Assembly: GCA_947169825.1 (NCBI GenBank)
Contig: CAMVRE010000003.1
Coordinates: forward strand, 1-59,845
DNA: 59,845 nucleotides
Direction: 5' to 3'
Source of the DNA: an uncultured Verrucomicrobiota bacterium
GTDB taxonomy: Bacteria > Verrucomicrobiota > Kiritimatiellia > RFP12 > UBA3636
The position numbers were made by a program, and so were the translations under genes. Numbering within the stretch: position 1 is the stretch's first letter; each line of letters begins with the position of its first letter. Positions 4,422 through 52,853 of the stretch are shown here, one piece after another. Under the pieces are notes generated by a model, which was not told where the DNA came from, made no database searches, and saw only the letters and a list, made by a program, of their open reading frames with translations.

Positions 4422-4429
4422 CGCGGTCC

Positions 4430-5245: not shown

Positions 5246-5249
5246 TCCC

Positions 5250-8838: not shown

Positions 8839-8880
8839 CGCGGGCGTCTCCGTCCGCCTTCGTCGTCCGCCCCCTCCGAC

Positions 8881-8916: not shown

Positions 8917-8952
8917 GCCCCTCATTCTTCCACCCAACCTTTTTTCGATTCC

Positions 8953-16065: not shown

Positions 16066-16080
16066 ACGAAACCTTCGACA

Positions 16081-36100: not shown

Positions 36101-38368
36101 AAGGTCGGCAATGCGCATGTGCGTCGTGCCCAGGACGTGGAAGACGACGGTCCGTCCGCCGTCGATCTCCGCCATCGCCGTGACGATGTCGGAGCCCTTG
36201 TCCGGCGTAAAGGCGCCGGGGACGAGGACCCGGAGGGGTTCTCCGGGCGTCGGGGGGGCGGCGAGCGATTCGAAGGCGGGGAAGTCCCGCCCGTGGGGGA
36301 CCACGCGGAAGTCGGCGTCCCGTGCCTTCAGGACGGGCAGAAGCGCCTCGAGGCGCGCCTTCGCGTCCGGCGAGGTCGTGACGAACGCGTCGCAGAACGG
36401 GGCGATCCGATCCTCGAACCGGCGCCTCCAGGCGGCGGCGAAGCCGGGGTCCAGAACCGGGCCGTCGGGCAGCAGGGGAATCCAGTCCAGGAACTTCGTC
36501 TCGCCGTCCTCGACGCCGTCCGGGTGGAAGCGCCGGCGCGAATCCAGGAGCTTCAGGGCGGGGCTTGCGGCGTAGTAGTCGTGGAAGGAGAAAACGACCG
36601 GGATGTGGAGCGCGCGCAGGCGGGGGAAGAACCCGGCGCTGCCGCGAAGGAGGTGGCGCACATGGACGATTTCGACGCCGAGGTCGAGAGCCCAGTCGAC
36701 GAGCGTATCGTCGTATTCGGCGAGGGAATGGGTGCCGAGCGGGACGAAGTCGGAAAGCGCGTGTTCGCGGATCGGTGCGGAACCGGGCCGAGATGCGTCG
36801 AGCAGTTTCATCCGCCGCCCGTCGCAGACCAGCACGAACGACTCGAACGAGCCGTCCAGGGCCCTGGCCAGATCGCAGGTGGTGTGGAACGTGCCGCCGT
36901 TCAGGACCCCTCCCAGGACGAACAGGAGGCGGGGCCGCGGCCGCAGACCGCCCGCGATGGAGGAGGCGACGAGGCGGAAGAGGGGCCGGGCCGCCTCCCA
37001 GCCGCGGAACCCGGCGGTCTGGAGGAAGTCCAGCTCCGGATAGCGCGCCCGGAGGATTGCGCCGGCCTTGCGGACGCGCTCGGATTTTTCCGCCGATCCG
37101 AAGGAGGCGGCGTTGAGGTGCCAGACGAACGAGCGCGGAACGATGCGGTGCGTCCATCCGCGGCGGCTGGCGCGGAGGCACAGGTCGTTCTCCTCCCCGT
37201 ATCCCTTGCCGAACGTCTCTTCGTCGAAGCACCCGACGTCGTCGAGCATGGCGCGCTTGAGATACAGGCAGAAGCCGTGGCCGGTGTGCCAGTCGAACAC
37301 GGCGTCCGGCCCGTGCATCCACCCGCGGGCGACCTGCGCCACGGAGAGATGCGGCGGCATTCCGTTGAAACCGGCCTCGGGAACGGAAACGGCGCCGGAG
37401 TTGTTCGAGACGGCCGTGGCGCTGCCGATCCGGTCGTCGCCGTAGGCGGCGAGCCGGAGCGTGTCGGACCAGCGGGGGGAGACGACCGTGTCGTTGTTGA
37501 GAAGGATGACGTCCCGGCGCCCGGCGGCGCGGATGCCGTGGTTGCATGCGCCGGCGAATCCGGCGTTCTCGTCGAGGCATTCGACCCGGACGCGTTCCGG
37601 GTAGGCGGCGGCGAGCCGCCGGAGCATCGGGCGGACGCTCGGGTCGCGGCTGCCGTTCTCGACGAAAAGCAGGAGGACGTCCGGCGGCGTGTGCTCGAGG
37701 AGCGACGCAACGAGCGGCGGCAGGAGCTCCGGGTGGTCGTAGACCGGGACGACAACGGCGAGCGGAGCCATGGGCGCGGCCTGGGCGCGGGCGCGGCGGA
37801 CGGACGCGGCGCGGACCTCCGAGCCGAACCGCACCGGGCGCAGAATGTCCATCAGCTCCAGCGAACTGGCGGCGGTGGGGCGGACGCCCGTTCCGAAGCG
37901 CCCGGCGTGTGCGACCAGCGGATTGGCGGAGGGGGGATCGTCGTCGTCGTCGCAGCCCGCATCGGCGGCGGCGGCGATGGCGGCGTCGAGGAACCGGTCC
38001 GCGACGCGCCGCCGCGTCCGCCATCCGTCGAGGCAATAGTCGAGCAGGGGCGAGGAGAAATGGATGGACGACACCTGCGGATGCGCCCAGCAATAGTAGT
38101 CGCGGTCGAACAGGCCCGACCGGCGGGTGGCGAGGACGTCCTCGAGGAGGCGGATGCCGGCCAGCCGATCCTTCCGGAACGCGTCGAAAAGCCCGCGAAG
38201 CATGCCGATGGAGGAACCGAGCCGCTGGAGAATCCGGTCCCGCCGGGAGAATCCCGCCCGAAAGGCGGCCAGTCCGGCCGGTTCCCCGGACTCGACCAGG
38301 GGAGGGCGGGCCGCCCCGCGGTCGCAGGTCGGGGGCGGATCCGTGGCTGGGGTCTTCGGGCGTTCCAT
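33107..38368 (-). CDS. Giant multidomain glycosyltransferase: GT2 + GT4-like + DUF616-like + asparagine-synthase-like domain
   Basis: VVVPVY..GFAGACNHG..ILLNNDT (GT2); H..G..FSFHDYY..PET(W)C.TL.E.W (GT-B); VVYTAI.GGYE..WIDGN..RRDQISFP (DUF616); LTAGYDSR (adenylation PP-loop-like). Start at ATG 38368, 10 nt after the -10 box. Confidence 0.8.
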   Translation of the reverse strand: MERPKTPATDPPPTCDRGAARPPLVESGEPAGLAAFRAGFSRRDRILQRLGSSIGMLRGLFDAFRKDRLAGIRLLEDVLATRRSGLFDRDYYCWAHPQVSSIHFSSPLLDYCLDGWRTRRRVADRFLDAAIAAAADAGCDDDDDPPSANPLVAHAGRFGTGVRPTAASSLELMDILRPVRFGSEVRAASVRRARAQAAPMAPLAVVVPVYDHPELLPPLVASLLEHTPPDVLLLFVENGSRDPSVRPMLRRLAAAYPERVRVECLDENAGFAGACNHGIRAAGRRDVILLNNDTVVSPRWSDTLRLAAYGDDRIGSATAVSNNSGAVSVPEAGFNGMPPHLSVAQVARGWMHGPDAVFDWHTGHGFCLYLKRAMLDDVGCFDEETFGKGYGEENDLCLRASRRGWTHRIVPRSFVWHLNAASFGSAEKSERVRKAGAILRARYPELDFLQTAGFRGWEAARPLFRLVASSIAGGLRPRPRLLFVLGGVLNGGTFHTTCDLARALDGSFESFVLVCDGRRMKLLDASRPGSAPIREHALSDFVPLGTHSLAEYDDTLVDWALDLGVEIVHVRHLLRGSAGFFPRLRALHIPVVFSFHDYYAASPALKLLDSRRRFHPDGVEDGETKFLDWIPLLPDGPVLDPGFAAAWRRRFEDRIAPFCDAFVTTSPDAKARLEALLPVLKARDADFRVVPHGRDFPAFESLAAPPTPGEPLRVLVPGAFTPDKGSDIVTAMAEIDGGRTVVFHVLGTTHMRIADLARPGLVFHGPYARNDFSARVREIRPSFAAILSPWPETWCHTLTECWAAGLPVFAFDLGAPGERLRSECAGGGRLLPPDATPDSILAAIREAAGSPAAFERAAEAVRAWQNGEGARNTVCRMAARYIDLYCSLLDHSAAGAVAGPPAPFAAEKTRDETPADPAALDRTDLSPAGTVRLSGFPLPRPDEARVLLLARLCGARLSLDETAANNDVWRTDGVRHHAWLAAAGDISKPRRPAIDSDGFPDFRIPAWVPVPDWLRDARLEVWRKARAGRAAPARHVVYTAIAGGYETLKLPEAPDPETDYIYFAPAPAAEEGPWTYRPFEWTDEDPTRTARWHKLHAPDLFPDAETVVWIDGNITLLPGVEREIREKLLAGPNPIATLRHFDRDNIRDEVETCVFYGNDDPALLRAQAARYLAVGLPERHPFAETTIVALRPTDPRVRAVFATWWEELAAGSRRDQISFPFALWKHGADFTPLFDRDIRLAADKVHFGTHAGLSQSAPCIHTRQFILSRRRFDRHDFRHLELPDGFILSYHPDLRVRATSDRRTVLLGLAWSCDPAVPDPLSAAAACETDGALERVLDAWSGRWLLLRDGRLRMDACGLLGVFFRGGDCSSSLALLDEHLGLHPRSPGLKHQFGGMDFYPGPLTPQPGVLRLLPCQGLDFSSGTPFERPPEPPAPAFHTNEARIAAVIDAFDVLLRRIAADYPGRVQLPLTAGYDSRTLAALLEHAGVEYGTFTMDHRRLRIGDRDVPPRLAAILGRPHRFVPRTGSPNPALYRLYDEHCAGLAVDEDRNFFAFGQYPHSALKRRRIAVLRGGVWESVREYFRETHHFLQTAQDIREFTSAFLNVRYRTDLQRAYSAWLEHCRAVPSELDPVDRYYLEQRAGSWLSSVEQSLDIIPGMDSIQPCNCRRILSILRSFPREDRIKAAHQVAIIRSVCPSLLEEPFQGDRSYVHGDPKRPPATIWALLSRKKDTLRTYLRCLGLRGTIQLLLDERK

Positions 38369-38378
38369 CGGAGCGGTG

Positions 38379-38407
38379 ATTCTAGGGCAAAACAGGTCGT
38401 TTCGCAA
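38379..38407 (-). promoter_or_regulatory. Promoter of the giant GT operon
   Basis: On the minus strand: TTGCGA, 17 bp, TAGAAT. Confidence 0.65.
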
Positions 38408-38421
38408 CCCAAATATTGCAA

Positions 38422-38450
38422 TTGCGCCCGCCGTGCCGTTCTGATAGAAT
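38422..38450 (+). promoter_or_regulatory. Divergent promoter of the GT2-RgpF operon
   Basis: TTGCGC (38422-38427), 17 bp, TG-A-TAGAAT (38442-38450). Confidence 0.7.
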
Positions 38451-38465
38451 CGCCCGCCGAAGGGC

Positions 38466-40427
38466 ATGAATGGAACAGACCAGGGGACATTCCGGGCGGA
38501 CGCGGATCGCGCGCTTGCGAGTCAAGCGGCGGAACGACGGGGCGAAGTCGAGTTTCTCGAGCGCCTGTGCCGGATCGAGCGGCGGCAGAAGGATGCCGCC
38601 ATCGAGGCTCTGAAGCGGTCGCTAAGCTGGCGCCTGACGGCGCCGCTGCGGCTGGCGGTGGAGGCGGCGGCCGCCCTGCGCCGGTTCGTTTTTCCCGTTC
38701 CGGCTCCGTTGCGCCCTCTTCCGCCGCGTCCCGCCTCGTCGCTGTTCGCCGCGCCGGAGGAGCTGGCGCGCCAGCGCGCCGCCGCGCCGCGAGGAGGCCT
38801 TTCGTTTTGCGTGGCCGTACCGCTCTCGGATCCGTCCGACGCGCGTCTCTCCGCGCTCCGCGACTCGCTGCTGGCCCAGACCTTTCCCGCGTGGGAGCTC
38901 TGCGCCGTGGATTCGTCGGGGCCGGAGGACGCCGCCCGCCACGAACGGATCCTTCGCGAGGACGCCGCCGCGGGCGACCGCATCCGGTTCTCCCGCGCCG
39001 CCGGCGGCGTCGCGGACCGGCTCTCCGCCGCGGTCGGCCTTTCCGCGGCGCCGCTGGTGCTGGTCCTCGGACAGGACGACCTTCCTGCGCCCGACGCCCT
39101 GTTCCGCTTCGCGGAGGCGTTCGCGTCCGCGGGCGATCCCGCGTTCGTCTATGCGAGCGGCCTGCTCGTGCGGGACGGGTTCCGGTTCGATCCGTCGAGC
39201 GTGCGGGACGTCGTCTCCGTGCTGCCGCGCCCGGACTTCTCCCTCGATGCGTTCCGCGGGCACGATTTCGTCGGCCGCGGCTTCGCCTGCCGCCGCGCGC
39301 GGCTCGAGGCGGCGGGCGGGTTCCGCGCGGAGGCGGGAAGCGCCGCGACGACGGATCTGCTCTTCCGGCTTTGCGAAACCGCCGGCGGCGGACCGGCGCA
39401 CATCGCGGCGCCGCTGCTCGCCGATGCGGCGCCCCTCGTCCCCGTCGTTCAGGACGGGGCGTCCGCCGAGGCGCGCGTCGCCGACGCGCGCCGGGCCCTC
39501 GAAGCCCATCTGGCCCGGACCGGCTTCGAGGCCCGCGTCGAGACGCCGAGCCCCGGCCGCGCGTTCTTCCGCGTCCGCCCGCCCCGGCCCGATCCGGCGC
39601 CGCTCGTCTCGATCGTGATTCCCAACCGCGAGAATCCGAACGTGCTGGAGACGTGCGTCCGCTCGATCCTTTCCCGGACCCTCTATCCGAACTACGAGGT
39701 CGTGATCGTCGAGAGCGGCAGCTCGAAGCCGGAGACGTTCGCGCTCTACGACCGGCTTTCGGAGGATCCGCGCGTCCGAGTCGTCCGGTTCCCGAAGAGG
39801 CCGGACGAACCGTTCAACTATTCGAAGAAGTGCAACTTCGGCGCGGCGCAGTGCCGCGGGGAGTTCCTCCTCATGCTCAACAGCGACACCGAGGCCGTCC
39901 TGCCGGACTGGATGGACGAGATGCTCGGTTTCGCCGCGCGCCCCGACGTCGGGGTCGTCGGCGCGCTGCTGCTCTTCGGGAACGCGACGGTCCAGCACGC
40001 CGGGCTCCGGCATCGGCCCGGCGGCCTGCCCGACCATATCGAGCGATCCGCCGCGGCGCTTTCGCCCGGCCGGATGGGCCGCCTGCTCCACGTGCAGGAG
40101 TACGAGGCGGTCACCTTCGCCTGCGCGATGGTTCGGACATCCGTCTGGGCGGAGCTCGGCGGACTCGACGAATCGTTCGCCGTCGCGTTCAACGACGTCG
40201 ATTTCTGCTACCGGGCCCGGGCGCGCGGCCTCAAGGTCGTGTGGACCCCGTTCGCGACGCTCTTCCACCACGAATCGCTTGTCCGCGGTTCGGACTTCGC
40301 CGGTCCCAACCGGGCGCGCTTCCTCGGCGAGATCGCGCACCTGCGCGAACGCTGGGGCGGCCTGCTGGCCCGCCCGGATCCCTTCTTCGACGATCTCGCC
40401 TTCACGTCCCTGCCCGGAATCCGGTAG
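38466..40427 (+). CDS. Two-domain GT2 glycosyltransferase (O-antigen/rhamnan-type)
   Basis: VSIVIPNR..VIVESGS..FNYSKKCN.GA..LMLNSD..GVVGALL..VTFACAMVR..FNDVDFC..HHES. The N-terminus has the S.SWRLTAPLR coiled-coil motif. Confidence 0.85.
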   Translation: MNGTDQGTFRADADRALASQAAERRGEVEFLERLCRIERRQKDAAIEALKRSLSWRLTAPLRLAVEAAAALRRFVFPVPAPLRPLPPRPASSLFAAPEELARQRAAAPRGGLSFCVAVPLSDPSDARLSALRDSLLAQTFPAWELCAVDSSGPEDAARHERILREDAAAGDRIRFSRAAGGVADRLSAAVGLSAAPLVLVLGQDDLPAPDALFRFAEAFASAGDPAFVYASGLLVRDGFRFDPSSVRDVVSVLPRPDFSLDAFRGHDFVGRGFACRRARLEAAGGFRAEAGSAATTDLLFRLCETAGGGPAHIAAPLLADAAPLVPVVQDGASAEARVADARRALEAHLARTGFEARVETPSPGRAFFRVRPPRPDPAPLVSIVIPNRENPNVLETCVRSILSRTLYPNYEVVIVESGSSKPETFALYDRLSEDPRVRVVRFPKRPDEPFNYSKKCNFGAAQCRGEFLLMLNSDTEAVLPDWMDEMLGFAARPDVGVVGALLLFGNATVQHAGLRHRPGGLPDHIERSAAALSPGRMGRLLHVQEYEAVTFACAMVRTSVWAELGGLDESFAVAFNDVDFCYRARARGLKVVWTPFATLFHHESLVRGSDFAGPNRARFLGEIAHLRERWGGLLARPDPFFDDLAFTSLPGIR

Positions 40428-40431
40428 CGCC

Positions 40432-41742
40432 ATGCCGTTCCGTCCTTTCGAACCGTTCGCCGCCTTCGCCCGGATCGTCCGGCGCGACGGTCTCGCCGTC
40501 TTCCCCAAGGCGGCGAAATACGCCTTCTCCCCGACCGCGTGGCGCTGGCTGCTGTGCGGGGGGGCGGGGGCCGCCCGCGGCGTCGCCGAGGCGGACGTCG
40601 AGACGATCCGCGCGTCGCGCTGGTTCGATGCGGAGTGGTATCTGCGGAAGTATCCCGACGTGCGGCGCTCCGGCGTCGATCCGGCCGCCCATTACGCCGA
40701 GTTCGGACGAGGCGGAGGCTTCGATCCGGGGCCGTATTTTTCGTCGGAGGAGTATCTCCGGCTCAACGAGGACGTTCGCGTCGGCGGCGACAATCCCCTC
40801 GTCCACTTCGAGCGGTGCGGCCGGGCGGAAGGCCGCCCGATTTCGGCCATCCAGTGCCGGAGGACCGCCTTTCCCGAGGGGGCGATCGAAACCGAGCGCC
40901 CGTTCCCCGCCCCTCCGCGCCGCCATCGGCGCGTCGCCGTGTTCGCCGCCTTCTTCCCGGACGGGCGGATTCCGGAGACGACGCTTTGCTACCTGCGGGG
41001 CCTGCGCGAAGTCGCGGACGACATCCTTCTCTTCGCCAACTGCCCGGTGTTCCCGGACGAGCTCCGCAAGCTGGACGGGCTGGTCCGCCACGCCGGGTTC
41101 CGCGTCCACGGCGGGCACGACTTCCTTTCCTATCGACTCGGATACGAGAAGGCCCGCGAGCTCGGGCTGCTCGACGCGGCGGCGACCGACGAGCTGATCC
41201 TCGCGAACGACTCGTGCTACGGGCCGGTGTTCCCGTTCCCGGAATGCTTCGCGAAGATGGCGGGCCGCCCGTGCGACTTCTGGGGCATGACCGCGAACGC
41301 CGGCGCGTACCGCTCGGAGCATGTCCAGTCCTTCTTCTTCGTGTTCCGACGCCCCGTGCTGGACGGAACCGCGCTCGGCCGGTTCCTCGGCGGCGTCGAG
41401 GTCCTCGGATCGAGATGGGAGGTCGTCCGCCGCTACGAGGTCGGCTTCACCGCCGCGCTCGAGGAGGCCGGATACGCGTGGGACACGCTCGTGCCGCGGG
41501 ACTTTTCCGCCCGGCATGGCGGGGACATGGCGATGCGGCGCGTCCTCGAAACGCTTTCCGTCCACGGCATGCCGCTCGTGAAGGCGAAGGGACTGGACAC
41601 CTACATGGTCGACGACCGGGACGCCGTCCTCGACTTCATCCGGGCGCGCAATCCGGCGCTCGCGGCGGCCATCCCGCCGCCGCCGCCGCCCGTGGACTAC
41701 GAGGCGGTGCGCCGTCTTCGCAAGGAGGCCGCCCAACCATGA
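40432..41742 (+). CDS. RgpF (rhamnan synthesis F)-like protein
   Basis: FDAEWYL..YPDV..DP..HY repeats, followed by ILANDSCYGP, DFWG, HVQSFFFVF and YEVG motifs. Confidence 0.8.
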   Translation: MPFRPFEPFAAFARIVRRDGLAVFPKAAKYAFSPTAWRWLLCGGAGAARGVAEADVETIRASRWFDAEWYLRKYPDVRRSGVDPAAHYAEFGRGGGFDPGPYFSSEEYLRLNEDVRVGGDNPLVHFERCGRAEGRPISAIQCRRTAFPEGAIETERPFPAPPRRHRRVAVFAAFFPDGRIPETTLCYLRGLREVADDILLFANCPVFPDELRKLDGLVRHAGFRVHGGHDFLSYRLGYEKARELGLLDAAATDELILANDSCYGPVFPFPECFAKMAGRPCDFWGMTANAGAYRSEHVQSFFFVFRRPVLDGTALGRFLGGVEVLGSRWEVVRRYEVGFTAALEEAGYAWDTLVPRDFSARHGGDMAMRRVLETLSVHGMPLVKAKGLDTYMVDDRDAVLDFIRARNPALAAAIPPPPPPVDYEAVRRLRKEAAQP

Positions 41743-43679
41743 AACGGCTGTCTTCCTTTTTCCTTTCCCTGCTGCGACTGCTGCAGCGCGACGGTCTTCT
41801 GTTCTTTGCAAAATGCATTCGCTACGCGGCGTCCCCGAAGGCGTGGCGGTGGGTGCTCGGCGGCGTGGATGGCGCCGACCCGTCCTTTCCCAGAACGCTC
41901 CGCGATGACGCAAGGGCCGTCGCCCGCTCCCCCTGGTTCGACGCGGCGTGGATCCTGCGCGAGTATCCCGGCGCGGCGGCGGCGCGATGCGCCCCGGCGG
42001 AGTGGTATCTGCGCCAGTCGAATCCGGTTCTCGTCCATCCGGGACCGGAATTTTCCGACGACGAGTATCTGGCCCTGAACTTCGACGCCTTTCTGGTCGG
42101 CGCGCAGCCTCTGCTCCATTTCGACCGTTCCTGCAAGACGGAATCGCGGCAGGTGTCGTTTTTGGAGGAGGGTTCTTCGTTTCCGGCGCAAGCTCGTCCG
42201 ATGCGAATCTCCTTCGGCGTCATGCCGAAGCGAAGCGGAAGAACGGCGATCTTCGCGGCCTTTTCCGGCGACGGCCGGGTGTCCGAACGGGCGCTTCACT
42301 ACATGCGCGGCCTGCGGGAAGTGGCGGACCACATCGTATACGTCTCGAACAGTCCGATTCTTCCTGGAGAGGAGAACAAACTGCGCGGTCTGGTCGCGGA
42401 AGCGCTCTGCGAATTCCACGGGGAGTACGATTTCGGCTCCTGGAAGCGCGGCTGGGGAATCGCCCGCGAAAAAGGACTGCTCGCCGCCGACAGGGTCCAC
42501 GAGGCGATTCTCGCCAACGATTCCTGCTACGGTCCCGTCTTCCCCTTCGGAGAGGCATTCGACAAAATGTCGGAACGGAGTTGCGACTTCTGGGGCCTTG
42601 CGGCGAACGTTCCTTCCAAAAGCTCGAAAATCGGTGGCCAGAGAGAACACATCCAGTCCTATTTCATGGTCTTCCGGCGCCGGCTCCTCGACGCCGACGC
42701 CGTCGACCGCTTCCTCGGCGGCGTCGAACGGCTCGGCGACAGGCTCCGCGTCATCGAGCGCTACGAGACCCGCCTCACGGCGGCCCTCGCGGCGGAGGGC
42801 TTTTCGTGGGATACGTATCTTCCGCGCGAATACTACCGGAAAGTGCGCGGCGATCCGTCCATGAAAAAGCCTCTTTCGGCCATGCGGAGGTATCGGATGC
42901 CCCTGCTGAAGGCGAAGGCGCTCGGCCCCGACGCCGACGAGCCCGCGGAGGAGACCCTGGCGTTCGTGCGTTCGGTCAACCCCGAACTGGGCCGGCTCGT
43001 CTCCCCGGCGGCGTTCCGGCCCGTGCCCTCCGCGGAGCGGCACGCCCGGATCGCCGCCCTGTCGAAGGCCCATCCCGACGCCCTCGACAGGAACGCCGCC
43101 CGCCTTCGGTCCCGGATCGCGGAGGGCGAGAGGCCCGAGGCGCTGTTTCTGGTGTCATCGGCGGACGGCTTTGCCGCCGCCGGCGCCTTCGAGGCCCTGC
43201 TGGGCCGGCGCGATCCGTCGTTCGCGCCGCGCATCCGCGTCGTGCCGGATTGCCGCGAAGACGATGTTTCCGGAAGGATGGCCCGGTGCCTGGAGCGGCT
43301 GGAGGCGCGGTATCCGGACGCGGACGTCCGCGCCGCGAAGCGGGACGACGACGGCTTCTGGAAGGACGCGATCGGCGGCGCCGCCGTCGTCTTCTACCCC
43401 ACGGCGGCCCATGCCTTCCCGTATCTCTACGCGCCGCGCTGGTCGGTGGGCCGCGGCTTTCTTCCGATTCTCGTGTTCGATGCGTCTCTTGCCGGTCCGG
43501 GACCCTTGGAGACGGAGCTCGCCCGGCAGAACTATGCCTACTTCTGGAAGGTCGTCTTCACGGACCGCGCCGCGTTCGACGCCTATGCCGACCGCTCGAT
43601 CAGGAAAGGGGCGAACGCCATGTTCGCGACGTCCCCGGAGGATGCTTTTTCCGCGCTGATGGGAGAGTTCCAGCCATGA
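41739..43679 (+). CDS. RgpF-like protein with an additional C-terminal domain
   Basis: GEYDFGSW, ILANDSCYGP, DFWG and HIQSYFMVF motifs. ATGA-coupled at both ends. Confidence 0.8.
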   Translation: MKRLSSFFLSLLRLLQRDGLLFFAKCIRYAASPKAWRWVLGGVDGADPSFPRTLRDDARAVARSPWFDAAWILREYPGAAAARCAPAEWYLRQSNPVLVHPGPEFSDDEYLALNFDAFLVGAQPLLHFDRSCKTESRQVSFLEEGSSFPAQARPMRISFGVMPKRSGRTAIFAAFSGDGRVSERALHYMRGLREVADHIVYVSNSPILPGEENKLRGLVAEALCEFHGEYDFGSWKRGWGIAREKGLLAADRVHEAILANDSCYGPVFPFGEAFDKMSERSCDFWGLAANVPSKSSKIGGQREHIQSYFMVFRRRLLDADAVDRFLGGVERLGDRLRVIERYETRLTAALAAEGFSWDTYLPREYYRKVRGDPSMKKPLSAMRRYRMPLLKAKALGPDADEPAEETLAFVRSVNPELGRLVSPAAFRPVPSAERHARIAALSKAHPDALDRNAARLRSRIAEGERPEALFLVSSADGFAAAGAFEALLGRRDPSFAPRIRVVPDCREDDVSGRMARCLERLEARYPDADVRAAKRDDDGFWKDAIGGAAVVFYPTAAHAFPYLYAPRWSVGRGFLPILVFDASLAGPGPLETELARQNYAYFWKVVFTDRAAFDAYADRSIRKGANAMFATSPEDAFSALMGEFQP

Positions 43680-45859
43680 CGATCGATGATTTCCGCACGG
43701 TTCCTCGCAAGGGATCGTTCTCCTTCCGAGACGCGTGGAGGCTCGCGGCCGCCGTGTCCGCGGGCCTTGCCGCGGCGGCGGCGGTCTGCTCCTTCGTCCG
43801 TGTTCCCGGCTGGCTCGAGGCCGACGTCTGGTCCTGGCGGCGGTTCGCCGCCAGGACGCTTCTGCTTTCCGTCCCCCTGTCCGCCCTGGCCCTCCACTTG
43901 TTCTGGCCGGCGGAACGCATCTGGGGCTTTGTCGACCGCAACCGCTTCCGCATCGCGGCCGCCATCCTCTTCGTCGCGACGCTTCTGGAGCTGAACGGCT
44001 CGTCCATCGGGATGTGGAACCAGTATCTGCCCAACGACAAGGCCGCGGCTCCGCTCTTCGGCGTCCCGCGGGGGATCCGGTCGGACGAATGGGCCGTCTT
44101 CACGCCCATGACGCTGGCGCAGTCGTTCGCCCGGCCGTCCTGGCCGTACTTCAACGACATCCCCCGCGCCGCCCGGACGGACATGTTCTCCGTCTACGCG
44201 CAGCCCGTCCGGCATCCCCTGGTCGTCTTCCGTCCGTTCCTCGCCGGACACGTCCTGTTCGGCTTCAGGCGCGGGCTCGCGTTCTTCTGGGTCGGGCGAT
44301 GGCTCGCCCTTCTCCTGGCCGCCTACGAACTCTTCAAGCTGCTGACCGACGGCAGCAAGGCGCTTTCCGGCGCAGCGGCGGCATTGATCCTGTTCTCCCC
44401 CGTCGTCCAATGGTGGGGCGCGATCAACGCATTGGCGGAGATGCTGGTCTTCGGGTCGCTGTTCGTGGTCTGCCTGGATCGGTTCATGACGGGGCGAACG
44501 CTCCGCGACCGATGGCTGCCCATCGCCGGGATGGCGTATTGCGGCGTCGCCTACGCGATGACGCTCTATCCGGCCGCGATGGTACCGCTCGCCTACGCCT
44601 TCGCGGCCCTTTCGCTCTGGACGGTTCTCCGGCGCGCGAAAGGGTTCCGCGCGGACGCCGCAACGTGGGCCTTCGCGGCCCTTGCCGCGCTCGTGGCGGC
44701 CGGGTGCCTGGGCTGGTACCTCCATCTTTCCGGGGACGCGTTCCGCACAACCGCCGGAACGGTGTATCCGGGGAGTCGCTTCCATTGCGGGGGAGGAGCG
44801 AAGGCCTGGCACCTGTGCCGGTCGTGGGGCGATTTGTTCCTCCCGTGGACCTCCGACGGAGCCCTGAATTCGTTCGAGCTTTCGGCGTTCTTCGACTTCT
44901 TCCCCCTTGGGCTCGGTCTTGCGGTCTTCCTGTTCGTCCGGCGCGGCGTTCGCGACCTGGCCAGCCTGCTGCTGGTCGCGGTGTCCCTTCTTCTGGGGCT
45001 GTATTGTCTCGTCGGTCTGCCGCATGGGGCGGCGGGGACGCTGCTGCTGTCGCGATCGACTCCGTCGCGGTCCCTCGTGGCGCTCGGTTTCGTCCAGCTG
45101 CTGTTGCTCGTCCGCTCCGTGTCGCTGCTCCGCCCGGTCCCTTCCGTCCGCCGGTCGCTCCTCTGTGCCGCGGCGTTCGCCGTCCTGGCCGTCTGGCTGT
45201 CCCGTCTGGCCTACCCGGCCTACCTGGGATGGCCGAGGCTTCTGGCGGTCGGCGTGGCCGCGGCGGCCTCCGCCTCGTTGCTGCTTCGGTTCTCCGCGTG
45301 GCCGCGGACGGCGGCCTTCTTTTTCGTCGTCCTCGCCTTCGCCGCAGGCGGGTTCGTCAACCCCGTCCAGCGGGGCGACGCGGGCGTCCTGTCGTCGGAT
45401 CTGGCGCGGACGATCCGATCGATCGCCGAACGGGAGGGCGGCGCGTGGGCGGTGGACGGGGAAACCCTTCCGATGAACCAGTATCCCCTTCTCGTCGGCG
45501 CTCCGACGGTCAATGCGGGGAACGTCTATCCCGTCCTGGAGCGATGGGCGGAGGCCGATCCGGACGGGAAGGACCGGCAGACGTGGAACCGCTATGCCGT
45601 CAGCATGCGGTTCGACGTTCGGCCGGACGGCGGCCCGTCCTTCCGGCCGCTTGTCCAGGACTCCTTCCAGTGCGACGTCCCCCTGGCCCTTCTCGGACGC
45701 TGGAACGTTCGCTGGGTGCTGAGCCGGCGAAGGGGGCTGAAGGGCCTGTCCGGGGGCGGCCTCCGGCTTCGCCGCGTCGCCAAGGCGTCGGGATGGTACG
45801 TCTATGCCGTCGAACCGAATCCGGAATCCACGGCCGATCCAGGGCCTACCGGTACCTGA
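43676..45859 (+). CDS. Polytopic GT-C-superfamily membrane glycosyltransferase (glycan side-chain decoration)
   Basis: More than 10 hydrophobic segments, a PRGIRSDEW acidic loop motif, TVYPGSR, and a C-terminal soluble domain. Confidence 0.65.
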
Positions 45860-46556
45860 GGATGCACCAGATGGCGCGGAAGCCGTCCTTCCAGCCGATG
45901 TGCTTGCCCTCCTTGTAGGTGCGGCCGTTGTAGGAGATGCCGACCTCGTAGATGCGGAGCCCGGCGCGGGCGACGCGCGAGGTGATCTCGGGCTCGAAGC
46001 CGAATCGGTCCTGCTGGAGGGACGGGAGGATCTCCTTGAGGACGGGCGTCCGGAAGACCTTGTAGCAGGTCTCCATGTCCGTGAGGTTCAGGTTGGTGAA
46101 CCAGTTGGAGAGCGTCGTGAGGAACCTGTTGCCGACGGAGTGCCAGTAGTAGAGGACGCGGTGGGGCGCTCCGCCCATGAAGCGCGAGCCGAAGACGACG
46201 TCGGCCTTTCCCTCGAGGATTGGGGCGAGCAATTGAGGATACTCGGCCGGATCGTACTCGAGGTCGGCATCCTGTACGATGACGGCGTCGCCCGTCGCGG
46301 CGGCGAAGCCGGTGCGTAGCGCGGCGCCCTTGCCGCGGTTGACGTCGTGCCGCAGCTTGACGAACGTGTTGTGCTCGTCGTCGGCGAAGTCTTCCATCAC
46401 GGCGCGGGAGCCGTCCTTCGAGCAGTCGTCCACGAGGATGATCTGCTTTCGTATCGGCACGGCGCGGACGGCGTCCACGAGCCGCGCGAGCGTGCGTTCC
46501 TCGTTGTAGACGGGAATGACAACAGAAAGGACGAAATCGTTCGGAATGTTATTCAT
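45846..46556 (-). CDS. DPM1-like GT2 (polyprenol-phosphate sugar synthase)
   Basis: [55 protein letters not shown] and [10 protein letters not shown] motifs. Confidence 0.9.
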
Positions 46557-46563
46557 GCCGGGC

Positions 46564-46593
46564 ATTCTATCACGGATGCATGCCAGTGGGCAA
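46564..46593 (-). promoter_or_regulatory. Internal leaderless promoter of the DPM1-like gene
   Basis: TTGCCC, 18 bp, TG-A-TAGAAT, with the ATG 7 nt later. It overlaps the 3' end of the upstream RgpF-like gene. Confidence 0.6.
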
Positions 46594-47955
46594 GCGGGGC
46601 TCCGAAGTGGAAATCGGCTGAGCCGGGCGGGATGGCGCTTCATGCCGGATGGCGGTCGCAAGATCGGGGTTGAACCGTTCCACGAGTTCCAGGAGGCGTT
46701 CCGGCGCCTGGCTCGACTCGCCGGTGAAGGCCTTCGCCTTGACGAGCGGGGACTTGTAGCGGCGGATCAGGTCAAGCGGCCGCGTCGTCGGGTTGAACTT
46801 GTGGCGAAGTCGCGGAAAGCAAGGGCGTACGAACGCGTCCGGGACGAATCCGCGGCGGCGCAGATGATCCGTGAGCTGGATCTCGAACCGGTCGATGGCT
46901 TCGTTGCGCGTCGCGCGCGCGGGCCGCTCGGCGAAAAAGGACTCCAGGGCGCCGGCGTCCAGAACCGGTCGGCGGAAAACGAGGAAGAAGGACTGCAGGT
47001 GCGGGGTCCCGGAGCGCTGCGTGTTGAACGTGAGCCCCCAGAAGTCGGCGCGGCGTTTCTCCATCGCCCGGAACATTCCCGGGAACGGTCGCACCGGGGC
47101 GTAGCAGGAGCTGTTGGCGAAGACGAGCTCGTGGCAGCGTTCCGCGGCCAGCCATCCGCGTTCGCGCACCGCGCGCAGACCGATGCGCCATGAGCCGAAG
47201 TCGTAGCCGCCGTGCCAGCGGCAGACGGCCGCGGACGCGAGGCCGCGCAGCTTCTCCTCCTCGCCGGGCAGCAGGGGCGAATTGGCTGCGTAGACGATGT
47301 TGTCGCAGACTTCGCGAAGTCCTCTCAGGTAGAGAAGATCGCGATCCGGAATGCGGCCGTCGGGCGAGAACGAGGCGTAGACGGCGGTTCGTCCGTGGAC
47401 GGACGGTTCGTCCACGAGTCCGAGGTCCAGCTCGCGGGCGTCCGCGGGAAAGACGGGTTCTTCCCGCGCGGCGGCCTCGGCCCTCGTAACCGGACAGCCG
47501 ATGAAGCGTCCGTACTGCTCGTAGTGGACGAGCGGATTCAACCCGTCCGCGCGAACCTCCGGGTTGAGCTCCAGGTAGACGGCTCCGGAGAAGTCGGGGG
47601 ACGCCCGCCAGTCGTCGGGAAGGTCGTGCAGAAGGTAGTGCAGCTCCGGGGAGAGTCCCGAGCGGGCGATCTCCGGGTGGTTCGCCGCGTACCATTCGCG
47701 GTCGAAGAGGGGGGAGCGGTGGATCGTGAGAAGGTCGATCGGCAGGCGAAGGAGCCGGATGAACGCCAGGCGGTCGCGAACGCCCTCCCGCAGGAGCCGC
47801 GCGAAAAGGCGCGGATGCCGGATCGCGAACGCGGCAAGCCCGAATGCCGTCCGCGCCAGTACGCCCGGGGTGAAGAAGGAAAACAGGAAGTCTGGCCGGT
47901 CGGTCTTCCGGGGCGGAGGAGGGGATTGTTGGGCGTGGGGACGGCGGTTGAACAT
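46570..47955 (-). CDS. Third RgpF-like protein
   Basis: FDREWY..HPEI..SPELHY repeats, followed by [28 protein letters not shown] and FEIQ motifs. GGAGAGG SD upstream. Confidence 0.8.
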
Positions 47956-47979: not shown

Positions 47980-48375
47980 TTATCCGCGGATCTTTTCGAT
48001 GATGGCCGTCGTTGAAATGATCGGGGTGCGGGGAAGATAGAGGACTTCGCAGCCCGTGAGCGGAATCACCCAGTCGAACTGGCCGGTCCAGTCGTCGCCC
48101 ATGACGAGAAGGTCCGCCTTGTACTGCTTGATATACTCGGCCTTGCGCTCGAGCGACTCCTCCGTGAAGGTTTCATCGACGCACTTGAGCGCCCCGACGA
48201 TCCGGGCCCTTTCCTCGAACGAGTAGTACGGGTTGCGCCCTTTTTTCGCGAAACTGAGTTCGTCGCTTGAAATGCCGACGACGAGATGGTCGCACAGGTC
48301 GCGCGTGCGCTCCAGGATCCGGAGATGACCGTAGTGGAAGACGTCGAATGTGCCAAAGGTGATTCCGCGTTTCAT
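47980..48375 (-). CDS. tagD: Glycerol-3-phosphate cytidylyltransferase-like (TagD family), copy A
   Basis: GTFDVFHYGH (HxGH), MGDDW and RTPxISTT motifs. The substrate is not established. Confidence 0.8.
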   Translation of the reverse strand: MKRGITFGTFDVFHYGHLRILERTRDLCDHLVVGISSDELSFAKKGRNPYYSFEERARIVGALKCVDETFTEESLERKAEYIKQYKADLLVMGDDWTGQFDWVIPLTGCEVLYLPRTPIISTTAIIEKIRG

Positions 48376-48411: not shown

Positions 48412-48810
48412 CTACGGCCGGTTCCGCTCCATGAGCTCCGTCGTCGAGACGCCGGGGGTGCGGGGGAGGTAGACGACCTCGACGCCGCAGGCCTCGCGGA
48501 GCCAGTCGAAGCGGCCCTCGTAGTCGGCGCCGATGATGAAGACGTCGGCGTGGTGCTCGCGGACGTAGTCCGCCTTCCGCTCCTCGCACTCCTCCTTGAA
48601 GACCTCGTCGACGCAGCGCAGCTCCGCGACGATCGCCGCACGCTGCTCGTAGGGGAAGGCGAGGCCGTGGCTCTTGTTCTTGCTCGCGATGAACTCGTCG
48701 CTCGAGACGCCGACGACGAGCCGGTCGCAGAGCGCGCGGGCGCGCTGCAGGATGCGCAGGTGCCCGTAGTGGAACATGTCGAACGTGCCGAAGGTGATGC
48801 CGGTTTTCAT
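48412..48810 (-). CDS. TagD-family cytidylyltransferase, divergent copy B
   Basis: GTFDMFHYGH, IGADY and RTPGVSTT motifs; 132 aa. ATGA-coupled to the FGGY kinase. Confidence 0.85.
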   Translation of the reverse strand: MKTGITFGTFDMFHYGHLRILQRARALCDRLVVGVSSDEFIASKNKSHGLAFPYEQRAAIVAELRCVDEVFKEECEERKADYVREHHADVFIIGADYEGRFDWLREACGVEVVYLPRTPGVSTTELMERNRP

Positions 48811-50279
48811 GCGCGCTCCTTCATGGCGGCGAACCGGGCGGAGGCCTCCGCCCATGCGGACGCGCTCGCCCGGTTCGGTTCGTAGGCGATCGGCGGATCG
48901 GAGACGCCCATAAGCTCCCGGGCCTCGGCGTGGTCCCTGAGGTCGCCCATCGCGATCATCTGCACGAGGACGTTGCCCGCGCAGGCGCCCTCCGTCGGGC
49001 CGCAGAGGACCGGCACGCCGAGTGCGTCGGCCGTCATCCGGCAGTGCAGCGCGTTGCGCGTAGCGCCGCCGATCATGTTGAGGCCGTCGCGCTTCTCGCC
49101 GGTGATGCGCTCGAGCTGCGTCCAGAGCTCCTTGTAGCGCAGCACCATGCTCTCCAGCGCGCAGCGCGCGAAGGCGCCCTTGCTCTCCGGGACGGGCTGG
49201 CCGGTGCGCTTGCACCATGCGGCGATCTTCTCGTCCATGTGCCCCGCGCGCTGGAAGTCCGGCGCGTCCGGATCGATCAGCGAGACGAACGGCTTCGCCT
49301 TCTCGGCCATCTCGGTCATGCGGTCGTAGGGCACGTCCTCGCCCTGCTCCTTCCAGGCCTTGTGCAGCTCCTGGTAGACCCACATGCCGGTGAGGTTCTT
49401 CATGAACCGGATGCCGCCGGTGATGCCGATTTCGTTCGTCCAGCTGCATTCGTAGGCCTCGTCGGAGAAGATCGGCTCGGGGATCTCGGCGCCGACGAGC
49501 CCCCAGGTGCCGGTCGAGAGGCAGCCCCACTTGCCCTCCTTCGGGACGGGGATCGCGGCGACGGCGGAGGCGGTGTCGTGCGTGCCGACGGCGACGACCT
49601 GCGTCGAGTAGCCCTCGAGGTTCCGGATCGGGCCGAGGATCGTGCCGGGGCGGACGAGCTCGCCGAAGATGCGCCTCGGGAGGCCCGCCGCGTCGATCAG
49701 GTCCCAGGCCCAGTTGCGCGCGCGAACGTCGAGGCACTGGCTCGTGGAGGCCATCGTGATCTCGTTGGAGAGGACGCCCGAAAGCCAGTAGTCCATGAGG
49801 TCGGGCACCATGAGGAAGCGCGCGGCGCGGTCGAGCTGCGAGGCGGGGGACCGCGACTCCGCCACGAGCTGGAAGAGCGTGTTGATCGGCATGAACTGCG
49901 TGCCGGTCGCGTCGTAGATGCGGCGGCGTCCGAGCTTCGCGCACGTTTCGTCCATTACGCCGTCGAGGCGCGGGTCGCGGTAGGAATGCGGCAGGCCCGT
50001 CAGGCGCCCGGCGGCGTCCACGAGCGCGTAGTCCACGCCCCAGGTGTCGACGCCGACCGAGGCCGGCTCGGATCCGAGCGCGCGGGCCCGGCGAACGCCC
50101 TCGAGGATGTTGCGGTAGAGGGCGACCATGTCCCAGTGCAGGCCGCCGGGCAGCGGCGTCTGGGCGTTCTCGAAGCGGTTTGTCTCCTCGAATCGGAGGC
50201 GGGATCCGTCGAACCGGCCCGCGATCACGCGGCCGCTACCGGCGCCCAGATCGGACGCAACGTAGATTTTTTCACTCAT
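48807..50279 (-). CDS. rhaB: Rhamnulokinase-like FGGY carbohydrate kinase
   Basis: VASDLGAGSGR, VGVDTWGVDY, SYRDPR, GTQFMPINTLFQL, HDTASAV, STGTW, NLTGMW and PTEG..GN motifs. Confidence 0.85.
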   Translation of the reverse strand: MSEKIYVASDLGAGSGRVIAGRFDGSRLRFEETNRFENAQTPLPGGLHWDMVALYRNILEGVRRARALGSEPASVGVDTWGVDYALVDAAGRLTGLPHSYRDPRLDGVMDETCAKLGRRRIYDATGTQFMPINTLFQLVAESRSPASQLDRAARFLMVPDLMDYWLSGVLSNEITMASTSQCLDVRARNWAWDLIDAAGLPRRIFGELVRPGTILGPIRNLEGYSTQVVAVGTHDTASAVAAIPVPKEGKWGCLSTGTWGLVGAEIPEPIFSDEAYECSWTNEIGITGGIRFMKNLTGMWVYQELHKAWKEQGEDVPYDRMTEMAEKAKPFVSLIDPDAPDFQRAGHMDEKIAAWCKRTGQPVPESKGAFARCALESMVLRYKELWTQLERITGEKRDGLNMIGGATRNALHCRMTADALGVPVLCGPTEGACAGNVLVQMIAMGDLRDHAEARELMGVSDPPIAYEPNRASASAWAEASARFAAMKERA

Positions 50280-50357: not shown

Positions 50358-50753
50358 ATGAAGCGAGGCATCACCTTCGGCACGTTCGACGTCTTCCACT
50401 ACGGGCACCTGCGTCTGCTCGAGCGTGCGCGCGCGCTATGCGACTGGATGGCCGTCGGCGTCTCGAGCGACGAGCTCAGCGTCTCGAAGAAAGGTCGGGC
50501 ACCCTGCTATCCGTTCGAGGAGCGCGCACGGATCATCGGGGCGCTCCGATGCGTCGACGAGGTCTTCCGCGAGGAGTCGCTCGAGCGCAAGGCCGACTAC
50601 ATCAGGAAGTACGGGGCGGACATCCTCGTGATGGGCGACGACTGGGCCGGCAAGTTCGACTGGGTGGTTCCGCTCACCGGCTGCGAGGTCCTTTACCTTC
50701 CGCGCACGCCGGCCATCTCGACGACGGCAATCATCGAGAAGATCCGGGGCTAG
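50358..50753 (+). CDS. tagD: TagD-family cytidylyltransferase, copy C (about 81% aa identical to copy A)
   Basis: HxGH, GDDW and RTP..STT motifs. Differs from copy A at 25 of 131 positions, counted by eye. Confidence 0.8.
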   Translation: MKRGITFGTFDVFHYGHLRLLERARALCDWMAVGVSSDELSVSKKGRAPCYPFEERARIIGALRCVDEVFREESLERKADYIRKYGADILVMGDDWAGKFDWVVPLTGCEVLYLPRTPAISTTAIIEKIRG

Positions 50754-51553
50754 TCCGCGGCTTTGCCAGGCGGGGCGGGCGGTTCTCGCAGGAGGGACGA
50801 CCGACGGGCGAACCGGACGCGGAAGGCGGTGCGGAAATAGCGGAAGTTGGCGAGGAAGGTGTTCTGGGATTCGCCTTCGGCGCGCGGCCTCCAGTTCGCC
50901 GGAATCTGGACGAAGGGCACGCCGAGCCGGAGGGGGACGATCGAGGTCTCCAGAAAGAACGGATGGCGCAGCTCCCGCCAGTCGACCATCCGCAGGAGAT
51001 CCGTCGGAAACAGGCGGAAGGCGTAGGTCAGGTCGCTCAGCCGCGTCAGGAACATCGCGGCGATGAGCTTCTGGAAGATCGCGTTGCAGACGATCTTCAC
51101 GCGGCTGTAGCCGGAGAAGCCGCCGCCGGCCATCCAGCGCGACGCGGTGACGACGGCCCCCGGCGCCCGCTTCGACTCGGCGATCATCCGGCCGACCGCC
51201 TCCGGCGGCGTTTCGAGATCGGCCGACATCATCACGCAGTGGGACCCCTTCGCCTCCGGAATGGCGCTCCGGTAGGCGCCGCCCGCGAAGGGAAGCGCCT
51301 GGTAGAGGATGCGGACAGGCGGGCGCCCGTCGGATTCCGAGACGAGCGCCTCCGCCGTTTCGCGGCAGCCGGGCGTCGTCCGATCCGGATGGAGGAGGAT
51401 CAGGATTTCCGCGAGATCCTCGGGACGGCAGAACCTCCGGAGCTCCTCGACGGTTTCGCGGAGCGAGAAGGTCTCGTTGACGGCCGCGACGAGGACGCTG
51501 GCGCCCGTGAACGCGCCGGGAAGACGGGCAACGACGGAAGGTCGGTCGGACAT
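50750..51553 (-). CDS. DPM1-like GT2 (second polyprenol-phosphate sugar synthase candidate)
   Basis: SVLVAAVNE, GGAYRSAI, VMMSADLETPP, VTASRW, LSDLTYAFRLF and W.PR.EGESQ motifs. Confidence 0.7.
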   Translation of the reverse strand: MSDRPSVVARLPGAFTGASVLVAAVNETFSLRETVEELRRFCRPEDLAEILILLHPDRTTPGCRETAEALVSESDGRPPVRILYQALPFAGGAYRSAIPEAKGSHCVMMSADLETPPEAVGRMIAESKRAPGAVVTASRWMAGGGFSGYSRVKIVCNAIFQKLIAAMFLTRLSDLTYAFRLFPTDLLRMVDWRELRHPFFLETSIVPLRLGVPFVQIPANWRPRAEGESQNTFLANFRYFRTAFRVRFARRSSLLREPPAPPGKAAD

Positions 51554-51560
51554 GCCGCCG

Positions 51561-51589
51561 ATTCTAGCAGATTCGCAGTCGCGGCACAA
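51561..51589 (-). promoter_or_regulatory. Leaderless promoter of the GT2 gene
   Basis: TTGTGC, 17 bp, TG-C-TAGAAT, with the ATG 7 nt later. Confidence 0.7.
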
Positions 51590-51614
51590 ACGCGGCTGGA
51601 AGGCGTCCGGTCGC

Positions 51615-51643
51615 TTGCCCCGGGACCCCGCCTGTGCTAGGAT
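51615..51643 (+). promoter_or_regulatory. Divergent leaderless promoter of the flavoprotein gene
   Basis: TTGCCC, 17 bp, TG-C-TAGGAT, with the ATG 7 nt later (51651). Confidence 0.65.
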
Positions 51644-51650
51644 GGGGGCG

Positions 51651-52853
51651 ATGAAGACAAAGATCGCGATCATCGGCGCCGGTCCGGCCGGCCTCGCGCT
51701 CGCCAATGCGCTGCTTCGGCGCGGCATCGGGGATTTTCTGGTTCTGGAGCGCGAGGCGGAAGCGGGCGGCCTCTGCCGTTCGCAGATCGTCGACGGCGCC
51801 CCGCTCGACACCGGCGGCGGGCACTTCCTCGACGTCCGGCGCCCCGCCGTGACGGCGTTCGCCTTCGACTTCCTTCCCGAGGCGGAGTGGAACCGCTTCG
51901 ACCGCGATTCCCGCATCTCGATCCACGGGCGTCTGATCGGAAGCCCGTTCGAGGCGAACATCTGGCAGCTCGACGAGGCGCACCAAAGGCGCTACCTCGC
52001 CGACATCGCCGCGGCGGGGTGCAACACGGGCGCGCCGATGCCGGAAAAGTTCGTCGACTGGATCTACTGGAAGCTCGGCCGGGGCATCGCCGAGGACTAC
52101 ATGCTGCCCTACAACCGCAAGATGTTCGGCGACGACCTGAACGTCCTCGGGACGTATTGGCTGGAGAAGCTGCCGAACGTCTCCTACGAGGATACGCTGC
52201 GCAGCTGCGAGGAGCGCCGCCCCCACGCGGTCCAGCCGGGGCACGCCTCCTTCCACTACCCGAAGGCGTTCGGCTTCGGCGAGCTCTGGCGCCGCATGGG
52301 CGAGGCGCTCGGGCCCCGGCTCCTCCTCGGGACGCCCGCGCGGACGCTCGACGTCGCGTCGCGGACCGTGAACGGCGAGATCGAGGCGGGGCTCGTCGTC
52401 AACACCGCCCCGTGGCCCGCGTTCGAGCGGATCGACGGCCTCTCCCCGGAGTCGCTCGCGGCGATCGCCTCGCTCCGGCACACGGCCGTGGACATCGACT
52501 ACGTCCCGGAGGATCCCGACACGCCGGCGCAGTGGATCTACCAGCCCGATCCGGCGCTGCCGGAGCACCGCTGGCTCGTGCGCCGCAACTTCCTCCCCGG
52601 CTCGCGCGGCTATTGGCGCGAGACACGCCGGGAGCGCAACCCGCCGCTTCGTCCGGGGGCGTTCCGCGCGACGAACGACTGGGCCTATCCGCTCAACACC
52701 GTCGGGAAGAACGAGGCGATGGCGGCGCTGCTCGCGGAGGCGTCCGCGCACGGCGTCCTCGGCCTCGGCCGCTGGGGCGAGTGGCAGCACTACAACTCCG
52801 ACCTCGTCGTGGAGCGCGCCCTCGCGCTGGCGGAGCGGATCTCGCGCGGCTGA
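51651..52853 (+). CDS. FAD-dependent oxidoreductase (protoporphyrinogen-oxidase/UDP-galactopyranose-mutase-like)
   Basis: IIGAGPAGL..LERE..GGLCRS, D.GGGHF, PYNRKMF and GRWGEWQHYNSD motifs. Confidence 0.75.
   Translation: MKTKIAIIGAGPAGLALANALLRRGIGDFLVLEREAEAGGLCRSQIVDGAPLDTGGGHFLDVRRPAVTAFAFDFLPEAEWNRFDRDSRISIHGRLIGSPFEANIWQLDEAHQRRYLADIAAAGCNTGAPMPEKFVDWIYWKLGRGIAEDYMLPYNRKMFGDDLNVLGTYWLEKLPNVSYEDTLRSCEERRPHAVQPGHASFHYPKAFGFGELWRRMGEALGPRLLLGTPARTLDVASRTVNGEIEAGLVVNTAPWPAFERIDGLSPESLAAIASLRHTAVDIDYVPEDPDTPAQWIYQPDPALPEHRWLVRRNFLPGSRGYWRETRRERNPPLRPGAFRATNDWAYPLNTVGKNEAMAALLAEASAHGVLGLGRWGEWQHYNSDLVVERALALAERISRG

Follow-up and report, generated by a model that had tools for sequence, protein, structure and literature searches.

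Contig CAMVRE010000003.1 of an uncultured Verrucomicrobiota bacterium (Kiritimatiellia; RFP12; UBA3636) carries a gene for an FGGY-family sugar kinase, kinase X, that is translationally coupled to a gene for a TagD-like cytidylyltransferase, TagD-B. The two genes stay together across the species of one genus while their surroundings change, and they are restricted to that genus, whose genomes also hold a separate kinase paralog alongside the isomerases RhaA and FucI. We propose that kinase X and TagD-B form a self-contained activation module, in which phosphorylation, cytidylyl transfer and then phospho-alcohol transfer would follow one another; with its activities, the coupling of the reactions, the substrate and the acceptor all deduced from genomic evidence, we put the probability of this proposal at roughly 0.55. 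Why should a rhamnulokinase-like enzyme be joined to a cytidylyltransferase? Joint gain, adjacency amid shuffled surroundings, frequent codon overlap and the occurrence of the pair on its own point to one pathway, and this combination is hard to explain by drift alone.

A two-gene module in changing surroundings

The window, by which we mean the whole analysed stretch of 59,845 nucleotides, is the entire contig C3 of the metagenome-assembled genome (MAG) G000, which is 73% complete and comprises 394 contigs. The source names attached to its nearest protein relatives place it among rumen Kiritimatiellia. Open frames were chosen by GC content at third codon positions (GC3) in DNA of about 68% GC overall; this calling missed lower-GC glycan genes, and the gene calls used here are those from tblastn together with precomputed ones. 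Families were assigned by searching the window proteins with Pfam and NCBIfam profiles. The segment from 48,412 to 50,279 consists of two genes:

48,807 to 50,279, minus strand: kinase X, an FGGY sugar kinase of 490 amino acids with FGGY_N and FGGY_C domains, a rhamnulokinase/fuculokinase-like and genus-specific paralog
48,412 to 48,810, minus strand: TagD-B, the TagD-like copy B, 132 amino acids, CTP_transf_like (84 bits), ATGA-coupled to kinase X

Read from the sequence, the kinase gene runs from an ATG at 50,279 to a TGA at 48,807-48,809, and TagD-B from an ATG at 48,810 to a TAG at 48,412-48,414, so that stop and start overlap as ATGA (48,807-48,810), just as a preliminary description of this DNA had stated. 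That description also gave the kinase a promoter of its own. The spacer between kinase X and the divergent TagD-like copy C measures 78 base pairs, a layout shared with context L051, and a strict sigma-70 scan of it found no promoter; by eye, TTGCAT and TAGAAT lie 18 nucleotides apart with a TG before the -10 element, which ends 8 nucleotides before the kinase ATG, and a putative promoter is plausible on that showing. The GC3 of kinase X (0.94) and TagD-B (0.98) is core-like, beside 0.97 for BamA, and unlike that of the adjoining glycan genes (0.80 for TagD-like copy A, and 0.80-0.87 over the span of copy A, an RgpF-like gene and a family 2 glycosyltransferase, GT2).

Conservation was assessed in 15 distinct contexts whose kinase shares 80% identity or more with X, taken from 8 species-representative rumen MAGs and from metagenome contigs found either through the kinase or through TagD-B. 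An intact TagD-B ortholog (72-97% identity) adjoins the kinase in 13 of these related contexts, a recurrence beyond chance: it lies downstream in 11 (the window, L050-L054, L056, L057, L017, L018 and L079) and upstream, in reversed order, in two (L019 and L081). The 4-nucleotide overlap of start and stop recurs in L050-L054, whereas in L017 a PD-(D/E)XK gene sits between kinase and TagD-B, and in L080 the kinase is broken in two, by mutation or assembly error. The conservation of the pair that the preliminary description had wished to see checked is thus borne out among the species of the genus.

The neighbours of the pair vary, and include RgpF-like genes, GT4 glycosyltransferases, a Wzx flippase with an aminotransferase, MBOAT/AlgX, a TagF-like gene and others. 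RgpF-like genes are a frequent third partner: orthologs with 65-82% identity follow TagD-B or copy A in L017, L051, L056, L079 and G206:C27, and RgpF1-type genes follow the pair in six contexts, while they do not adjoin it in L050/L054, L052, L018, L019 or L081. An IspD-like gene is near the pair in L019 only. In L050/L054 the pair stands between DnaE and ExbB, with a GH3 glycosidase, a thioesterase and a thymidylate kinase, which is not a glycan locus. Given flanks that differ almost everywhere and this housekeeping setting in two species, the conserved unit is the two-gene module, often at the edge of variable glycan cassettes; its placement inside a polysaccharide locus, as first described, is right for the window and does not extend to the pair in general.

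A probable single gain on top of a catabolic gene set

The phyletic pattern was examined in 21 genomes from 8 genera of the family, which as kin are not independent of one another. X-type kinases (85-100% identity) and TagD-B (93-100%) were each found in 4/4 genomes of this genus and in 0/17 of the seven other genera. The latter have RhaA (17/17), mostly FucI (15/17) and, in 15 of the 17 genomes, a RhaB-like kinase that is always of a second type, Y, 46-51% identical to X. This joint restriction probably reflects one gain, and it shows that X arrived together with TagD-B atop an already complete catabolic gene set. Because the sister genera, with RhaA and mostly FucI, manage with a single kinase type, and the class member G111 likewise has RhaA, FucI and one FGGY kinase in total, a second kinase is not needed for the two pathways.

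Being the sole rhaB was among the conditions that the preliminary description had named as speaking against its reading, and kinase X is not the sole rhaB-like gene of its genome. In G000 the Y gene lies in two parts at the ends of contigs C306 (2104-3321, L010) and C172 (3-323, L011), beside RNase E/G; over 404 residues its product shares 50% identity with X, and its homologs lie in housekeeping contexts. No isomerase or aldolase gene (RhaA/RhaD, FucI/FucA) occurs in the window, as had been noted; the sister genomes carry RhaA, FucI and aldolase genes on other contigs, unlinked to kinase X. The 73%-complete G000 assembly yielded neither RhaA nor a class II aldolase, and its sole FucI match is on C258. 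Since the catabolic genes of this genus stand one by one in scattered places, with RhaA, for example, between a PDZ protein and DnaG, the lack of a linked isomerase means little.

A kinase with the residues of its catabolic relatives

Kinase X belongs to the FGGY family by both of its domains, which score above cut-off (PF00370, 70 bits; PF02782, 109 bits). It falls below the cut-offs of the rhamnulokinase equivalogs, with 422.4 bits against TIGR02627 (cut-off 527.95) and 370 bits against NF007925 (cut-off 639), and the next NCBIfam models are far lower (fuculokinase 116, xylulokinase 55 and glycerol kinase 27 bits). The TIGR02627 model is possibly too narrow, as no Kiritimatiellia homolog in the six genomes searched reaches its cut-off either. 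The best structural matches are Streptococcus pneumoniae FucK (4C23, 300 bits) and Escherichia coli RhaB (2CGJ, 291 bits), enzymes of the same fold and subfamily that align with X over their full length; X departs from both in its sub-threshold equivalog score, in lacking linkage to an isomerase or aldolase, and in being a genus-specific second copy that shares its operon with a cytidylyltransferase. The signatures of RhaB and FucK can hardly be told apart, E. coli RhaB also takes L-fuculose and L-xylulose, and polyol and L-xylulose kinases descend from RhaB-like ancestors (PMC3245297).

In a FastTree phylogeny of 143 homologs, X lies in a 32-row clade with starred support and Y in a separate 46-row clade with a support of 87, below the starring threshold, both inside a single strongly supported Kiritimatiellia group. 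Within its clade X belongs to a compact subclade of 21 rows (identity of 73% or more, branch 0.29). The deeper relatives P0029 and P0027 (55-62% identity) adjoin ComM among housekeeping genes, with no TagD-like gene beside them, so the link between kinase and TagD stops at the X clade. A nucleotide-sugar-type dehydratase/epimerase beside the P0029 kinase was rejected as a partner, being absent next to P0027. One further divergent FGGY kinase, of 513 amino acids, was seen in L052 (MAG RGIG3813; 8243-9784, minus strand), head-to-head with the X-TagD-B pair and with an IS200-like transposase nearby.

Several observations weigh against a biosynthetic role for the pair. The substrate and catalytic residues of RhaB, which we take to be those annotated in UniProt P32171, are kept in the alignment, where G83, H236-D237-T238 and N296 of the E. 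coli enzyme correspond to G81, H234-D235-T236 and N295 of X; the ATP loop (13-17 in E. coli numbering) is conserved as well, as DLGAGSGR. Only eight mild substitutions are specific to the X clade (V7, F155, M157, I243, D349, L385, N401 and A453, in X numbering), so few that nothing points to a new pocket; seen in an alignment, they would argue neither way on specificity. In L013/L014 an intact kinase is followed by no more than a 63-residue remnant of TagD-B, and in G206 kinase and TagD-B, both intact, are on different contigs, the latter followed by RgpF and TagD-A. No transferase or reductase was found to accompany the pair throughout. All instances come from one genus, and their conservation may amount to a single evolutionary event. 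To our knowledge, moreover, neither a CDP-6-deoxyketose nor a CDP-6-deoxyhexitol has been described. The family context points the same way. Each of five sister genomes encodes RhaA and FucI, two to three class II aldolases and, as its RhaB-like kinases, X and Y and no others; an E. coli-type FucK is lacking, and in a genus with both isomerases and no such FucK two catabolic kinases would make sense. Across a class-wide sample of 201 genomes, kinases of this family adjoin RhaA in many (G024, G111, G131, G152, G019) and FucI in others (G023, G090, G110, G056), and are clearly catabolic in the class.

Kinase X might therefore be an ordinary catabolic L-fuculokinase or rhamnulokinase and Y the other, TagD-B an ordinary CDP-glycerol synthase, and the shared operon a case of inherited synteny in a young genus. 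The intact RhaB/FucK pocket, the few clade-specific changes, the best structural match to a fuculokinase, the scattering of catabolic genes and the two contexts in which the kinase persists without an adjacent intact TagD-B would all suit this account. It has to contend with the seven sister genera, which have RhaA and mostly FucI and do with kinase Y alone, as G111 does with its one FGGY kinase, and with the fact that X and TagD-B enter the family tree jointly and remain joined, often overlapping, while every other neighbour changes. We regard it as possible, if somewhat doubtful.

The cytidylyltransferase partner

Besides TagD-B, the window encodes two TagD-like proteins of another type:

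47,980 to 48,375, minus strand: TagD-like copy A, 131 amino acids, CTP_transf_like, of a type other than copy B
50,358 to 50,753, plus strand: TagD-like copy C, 131 amino acids, CTP_transf_like, divergent from kinase X

Copies A and C share 81% identity, and B is 56-60% identical to the two (56% to A). All score below the TIGR01518 cut-off of 165.4 bits (B 121.8, A 123.4, C 120.9), and neither kinase X nor any of the three reaches an NCBIfam equivalog cut-off. The family of COG0615 cytidylyltransferases is defined by the motifs HxGH, RTxGISTT and RYVDEVI and by lysines 44 and 46 (PMC8262930). Aligned to 1COZ, copy B has FHYGH, RTPGVSTT, RCVDEVF at the dimer motif, and K44-N-K46, and these features are conserved throughout its clade. 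TagD-B forms a distinct clade of at least 71% identity, followed by a drop to 67%, which is marked against the A/C type and Bacillus subtilis TagD by a change of GDDW to G(A)DY (W95 to Y; GADY in copy B) and by a two-residue insert after K46. Its closest characterised relatives are glycerol-3-phosphate cytidylyltransferases (1COZ, 122 bits; 2B7L), and the model of HldE domain II matches it with 73 bits.

The partner of kinase X is copy B specifically, and the A/C type accompanies RgpF-like genes. It does so without regard to the kinase, as seen in the window, L017, L053, L056, G201:C1 (L085) and G206:C27 (L086), a hint that the RgpF-like proteins of these loci may draw on a CDP-linked donor or work beside one.

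Could the pair simply salvage glycerol to CDP-glycerol, X having drifted to a substrate that is abundant in the rumen? The combination would resemble the GlpK plus TagD/TarD route to teichoic acids and TagF-like capsules, in which an FGGY kinase is followed by a COG0615 HxGH cytidylyltransferase and the product is a CDP-alcohol for phosphodiester decoration (PMC8262930). The relatives of TagD-B and its retained K44/K46, HxGH and RTxGISTT would fit, as would a TagF-type Glyphos_transf gene 4 kilobases from the pair in L018, although that context has a separate TagD-like gene beside the TagF-like one. The pair differs from the glycerol route in that its kinase is RhaB-like (27 bits against the GlpK model, 422 against RhaB), its cytidylyltransferase scores below the glycerol-3-phosphate cut-off and has GADY for GDDW, and no TagF-type transferase is conserved with it. 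A separate FGGY gene on C16, a far better match (FGGY_N, 194 bits), is presumed to encode GlpK, and glycerol-3-phosphate is also supplied by central metabolism. We consider glycerol salvage quite unlikely.

Less probable still is that the pair turns salvaged L-rhamnose or L-fucose, through an aldose-1-phosphate, into a nucleotide sugar that would serve a rhamnan-type glycan made by the RgpF-like enzymes. RgpF-like genes are indeed frequent neighbours, and rhamnose-containing glycans are likely in the family, since RmlC was found in 18 of 21 genomes, including three sister genomes of the genus (it was not found in G000); in HldE domain II the HxGH fold has anomeric sugar-1-phosphates as its substrates, and a Bacteroidota fucose operon (L059) ends in a fusion of CTP_transf_like with a weak GHMP-kinase C-terminal match. 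Weighed against this, we know of no such salvage route, the sister genomes already have de novo dTDP-rhamnose synthesis, and FGGY kinases act on the primary hydroxyls of ketoses and polyols, not on anomeric hydroxyls (PMC3245297, Table 1).

The operon in L059 (Bacteroidota MAG JAUZPB01) came up as a match to the X-TagD-B pair in another phylum and was rejected as a normal fucose operon, comprising a DeoR regulator, an FGGY kinase, a class II aldolase, FucI and RhaM/FucU. Its closing gene (14966-16111) encodes the 381-residue fusion, with CTP_transf_like at the N terminus, a possible fucose-activating enzyme with an unusual architecture.

A proposed route and its precedents

Under the activation-module proposal, kinase X would transfer a phosphate from ATP to the primary hydroxyl group of a small ketose or polyol in its free form. 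Judged from the conserved pocket, the most likely substrate would be a sugar resembling L-rhamnulose or L-fuculose, or something closely derived from one. TagD-B would condense the resulting phosphate ester and CTP into a CDP-linked donor, which variable transferases, often RgpF-like and sometimes encoded elsewhere, would attach through a phosphodiester to a surface glycan or lipid. The unchanged pocket suggests that a ketose of this kind or a near relative is still the substrate, and the product would then be a CDP-ketose or, after reduction, a CDP-6-deoxyhexitol; as no reductase is conserved with the pair, a polyol substrate would be equally open. As a tentative extension that we hold to be unlikely on balance, the pair might make a donor never described before, CDP-L-rhamnulose, CDP-L-fuculose, a CDP-6-deoxyhexitol or another CDP-polyol, from a free sugar by means of a recruited catabolic kinase, and the surface glycans of rumen Kiritimatiellia would then carry a new residue, attached through a phosphodiester. 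The preliminary description had the kinase as anabolic and feeding a TagD paralog: copy B as the partner, the conservation of the pair and its restriction to the genus favour that part, whereas a polyol- or otherwise unusual product found no support, the RhaB residues being kept.

There are precedents among known systems. In the CDP-alditol pathways a ketose phosphate is cytidylylated to yield a phospho-alditol or phospho-ketose donor for capsules and lipopolysaccharide. S. pneumoniae converts CDP-D-xylulose to CDP-D-arabinitol, and TarI/TarJ make CDP-ribitol; the cytidylyltransferases of these pathways are of the IspD type. Their substrates come from central metabolism without a kinase, and an NAD(P)H reductase is included (TarI/TarJ, HS5.18/HS5.17), whereas our pair has a TagD-type transferase (PF01467), a dedicated kinase and no conserved adjoining reductase. 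Natural cytidylylation of a ketose phosphate is on record in the Campylobacter jejuni HS:5 system, where CDP-6-D-fructose is converted to CDP-6-D-glucitol (PMC10918830). The Kennedy pathway, with choline/ethanolamine kinase and CCT/ECT, shares the logic of kinase then cytidylyltransferase and the cytidylyltransferase family (3ELB and 4ZCP were matched), and differs in kinase fold and substrate class. An FGGY kinase and a cytidylyltransferase have yielded CDP-alditols in vitro in one pot (PMC13576159). Full-text literature searches found no paper tying a rhamnulokinase to a cytidylyltransferase; CpgD (PMC12275187) was set aside as a precedent, as it is not of the TagD type.

The surrounding glycan region

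On the minus strand the order is kinase X, TagD-B, a 36-nucleotide gap, copy A, and then two further genes:

46,570 to 47,955, minus strand: RgpF-like protein, 461 amino acids, PF05045 (96 bits), a frequent third neighbour of the pair
45,846 to 46,661, minus strand: GT2 resembling polyprenyl-phosphate-sugar synthases, 271 amino acids, PF00535 (119.5 bits), nearest NCBIfam models AglJ, ArnC, PgfS and PpgS, all below cut-off

This is the order first described, and Pfam and NCBIfam uphold all the family names given there. The contig has two more RgpF-like genes (40,279-41,742 and 41,739-43,679), another GT2 (38,466-40,427) and a gene for a multi-domain glycosyltransferase of 1,786 amino acids (33,107-38,467). 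Wzm/Wzt ABC exporter genes lie far upstream (4,313-6,467), and BamA and PlsX are on the opposite side of the glycan genes. The region is a surface-glycan region of a diderm bacterium.

Some of its other genes deserve mention. The GT2 at 45,846-46,661, with its likeness to AglJ, ArnC and PpgS, converges on a gene for a DUF7657/DUF7654 membrane protein of 727 amino acids (43,676-45,859), which may be a lipid-linked-sugar transferase. Beyond copy C, a GT2-like frame (50,750-51,961, minus strand) and an FAD-oxidoreductase frame (51,309-52,853, plus strand; PRK07208/UDP-galactopyranose-mutase-like) overlap as listed by about 650 nucleotides; the oxidoreductase domain begins at residue 115, so the true start is probably near 51,960. 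The two genes recur together in L053. Wzt of the exporter has a C-terminal DUF5648 domain, and nine more open frames (6,109-32,018) encode secreted proteins with C10-peptidase, BspA-LRR, Flg_new or lipase/hydrolase-like domains, eight of the nine also matching DUF5648. The shared domain suggests a glycan-binding anchor common to the exporter and its putative cargo, and under the tentative extension above, held to be unlikely on balance, the DUF5648 domains of Wzt and of the secreted proteins on the contig might recognise the new residue as their epitope.

Implications

Known routes to CDP-alcohol-phosphate donors draw on central metabolism, that is, on glycerol-3-phosphate, ribulose-5-phosphate, xylulose-5-phosphate and fructose-6-phosphate. 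If the proposed module is real, its entry point would be a different one: the pair would trap a deoxy-ketose or polyol in its free form and activate it through two successive reactions, probably yielding a donor that is new. Both enzymes are small and soluble, which makes the hypothesis directly testable. Automatic annotation labels kinase X a rhamnulokinase and counts it toward rhamnose catabolism in metabolic models of rumen Kiritimatiellia, and our analysis gives reason to doubt that assignment. If true, the pair would offer a clean case of a catabolic kinase recruited into surface-glycan synthesis.

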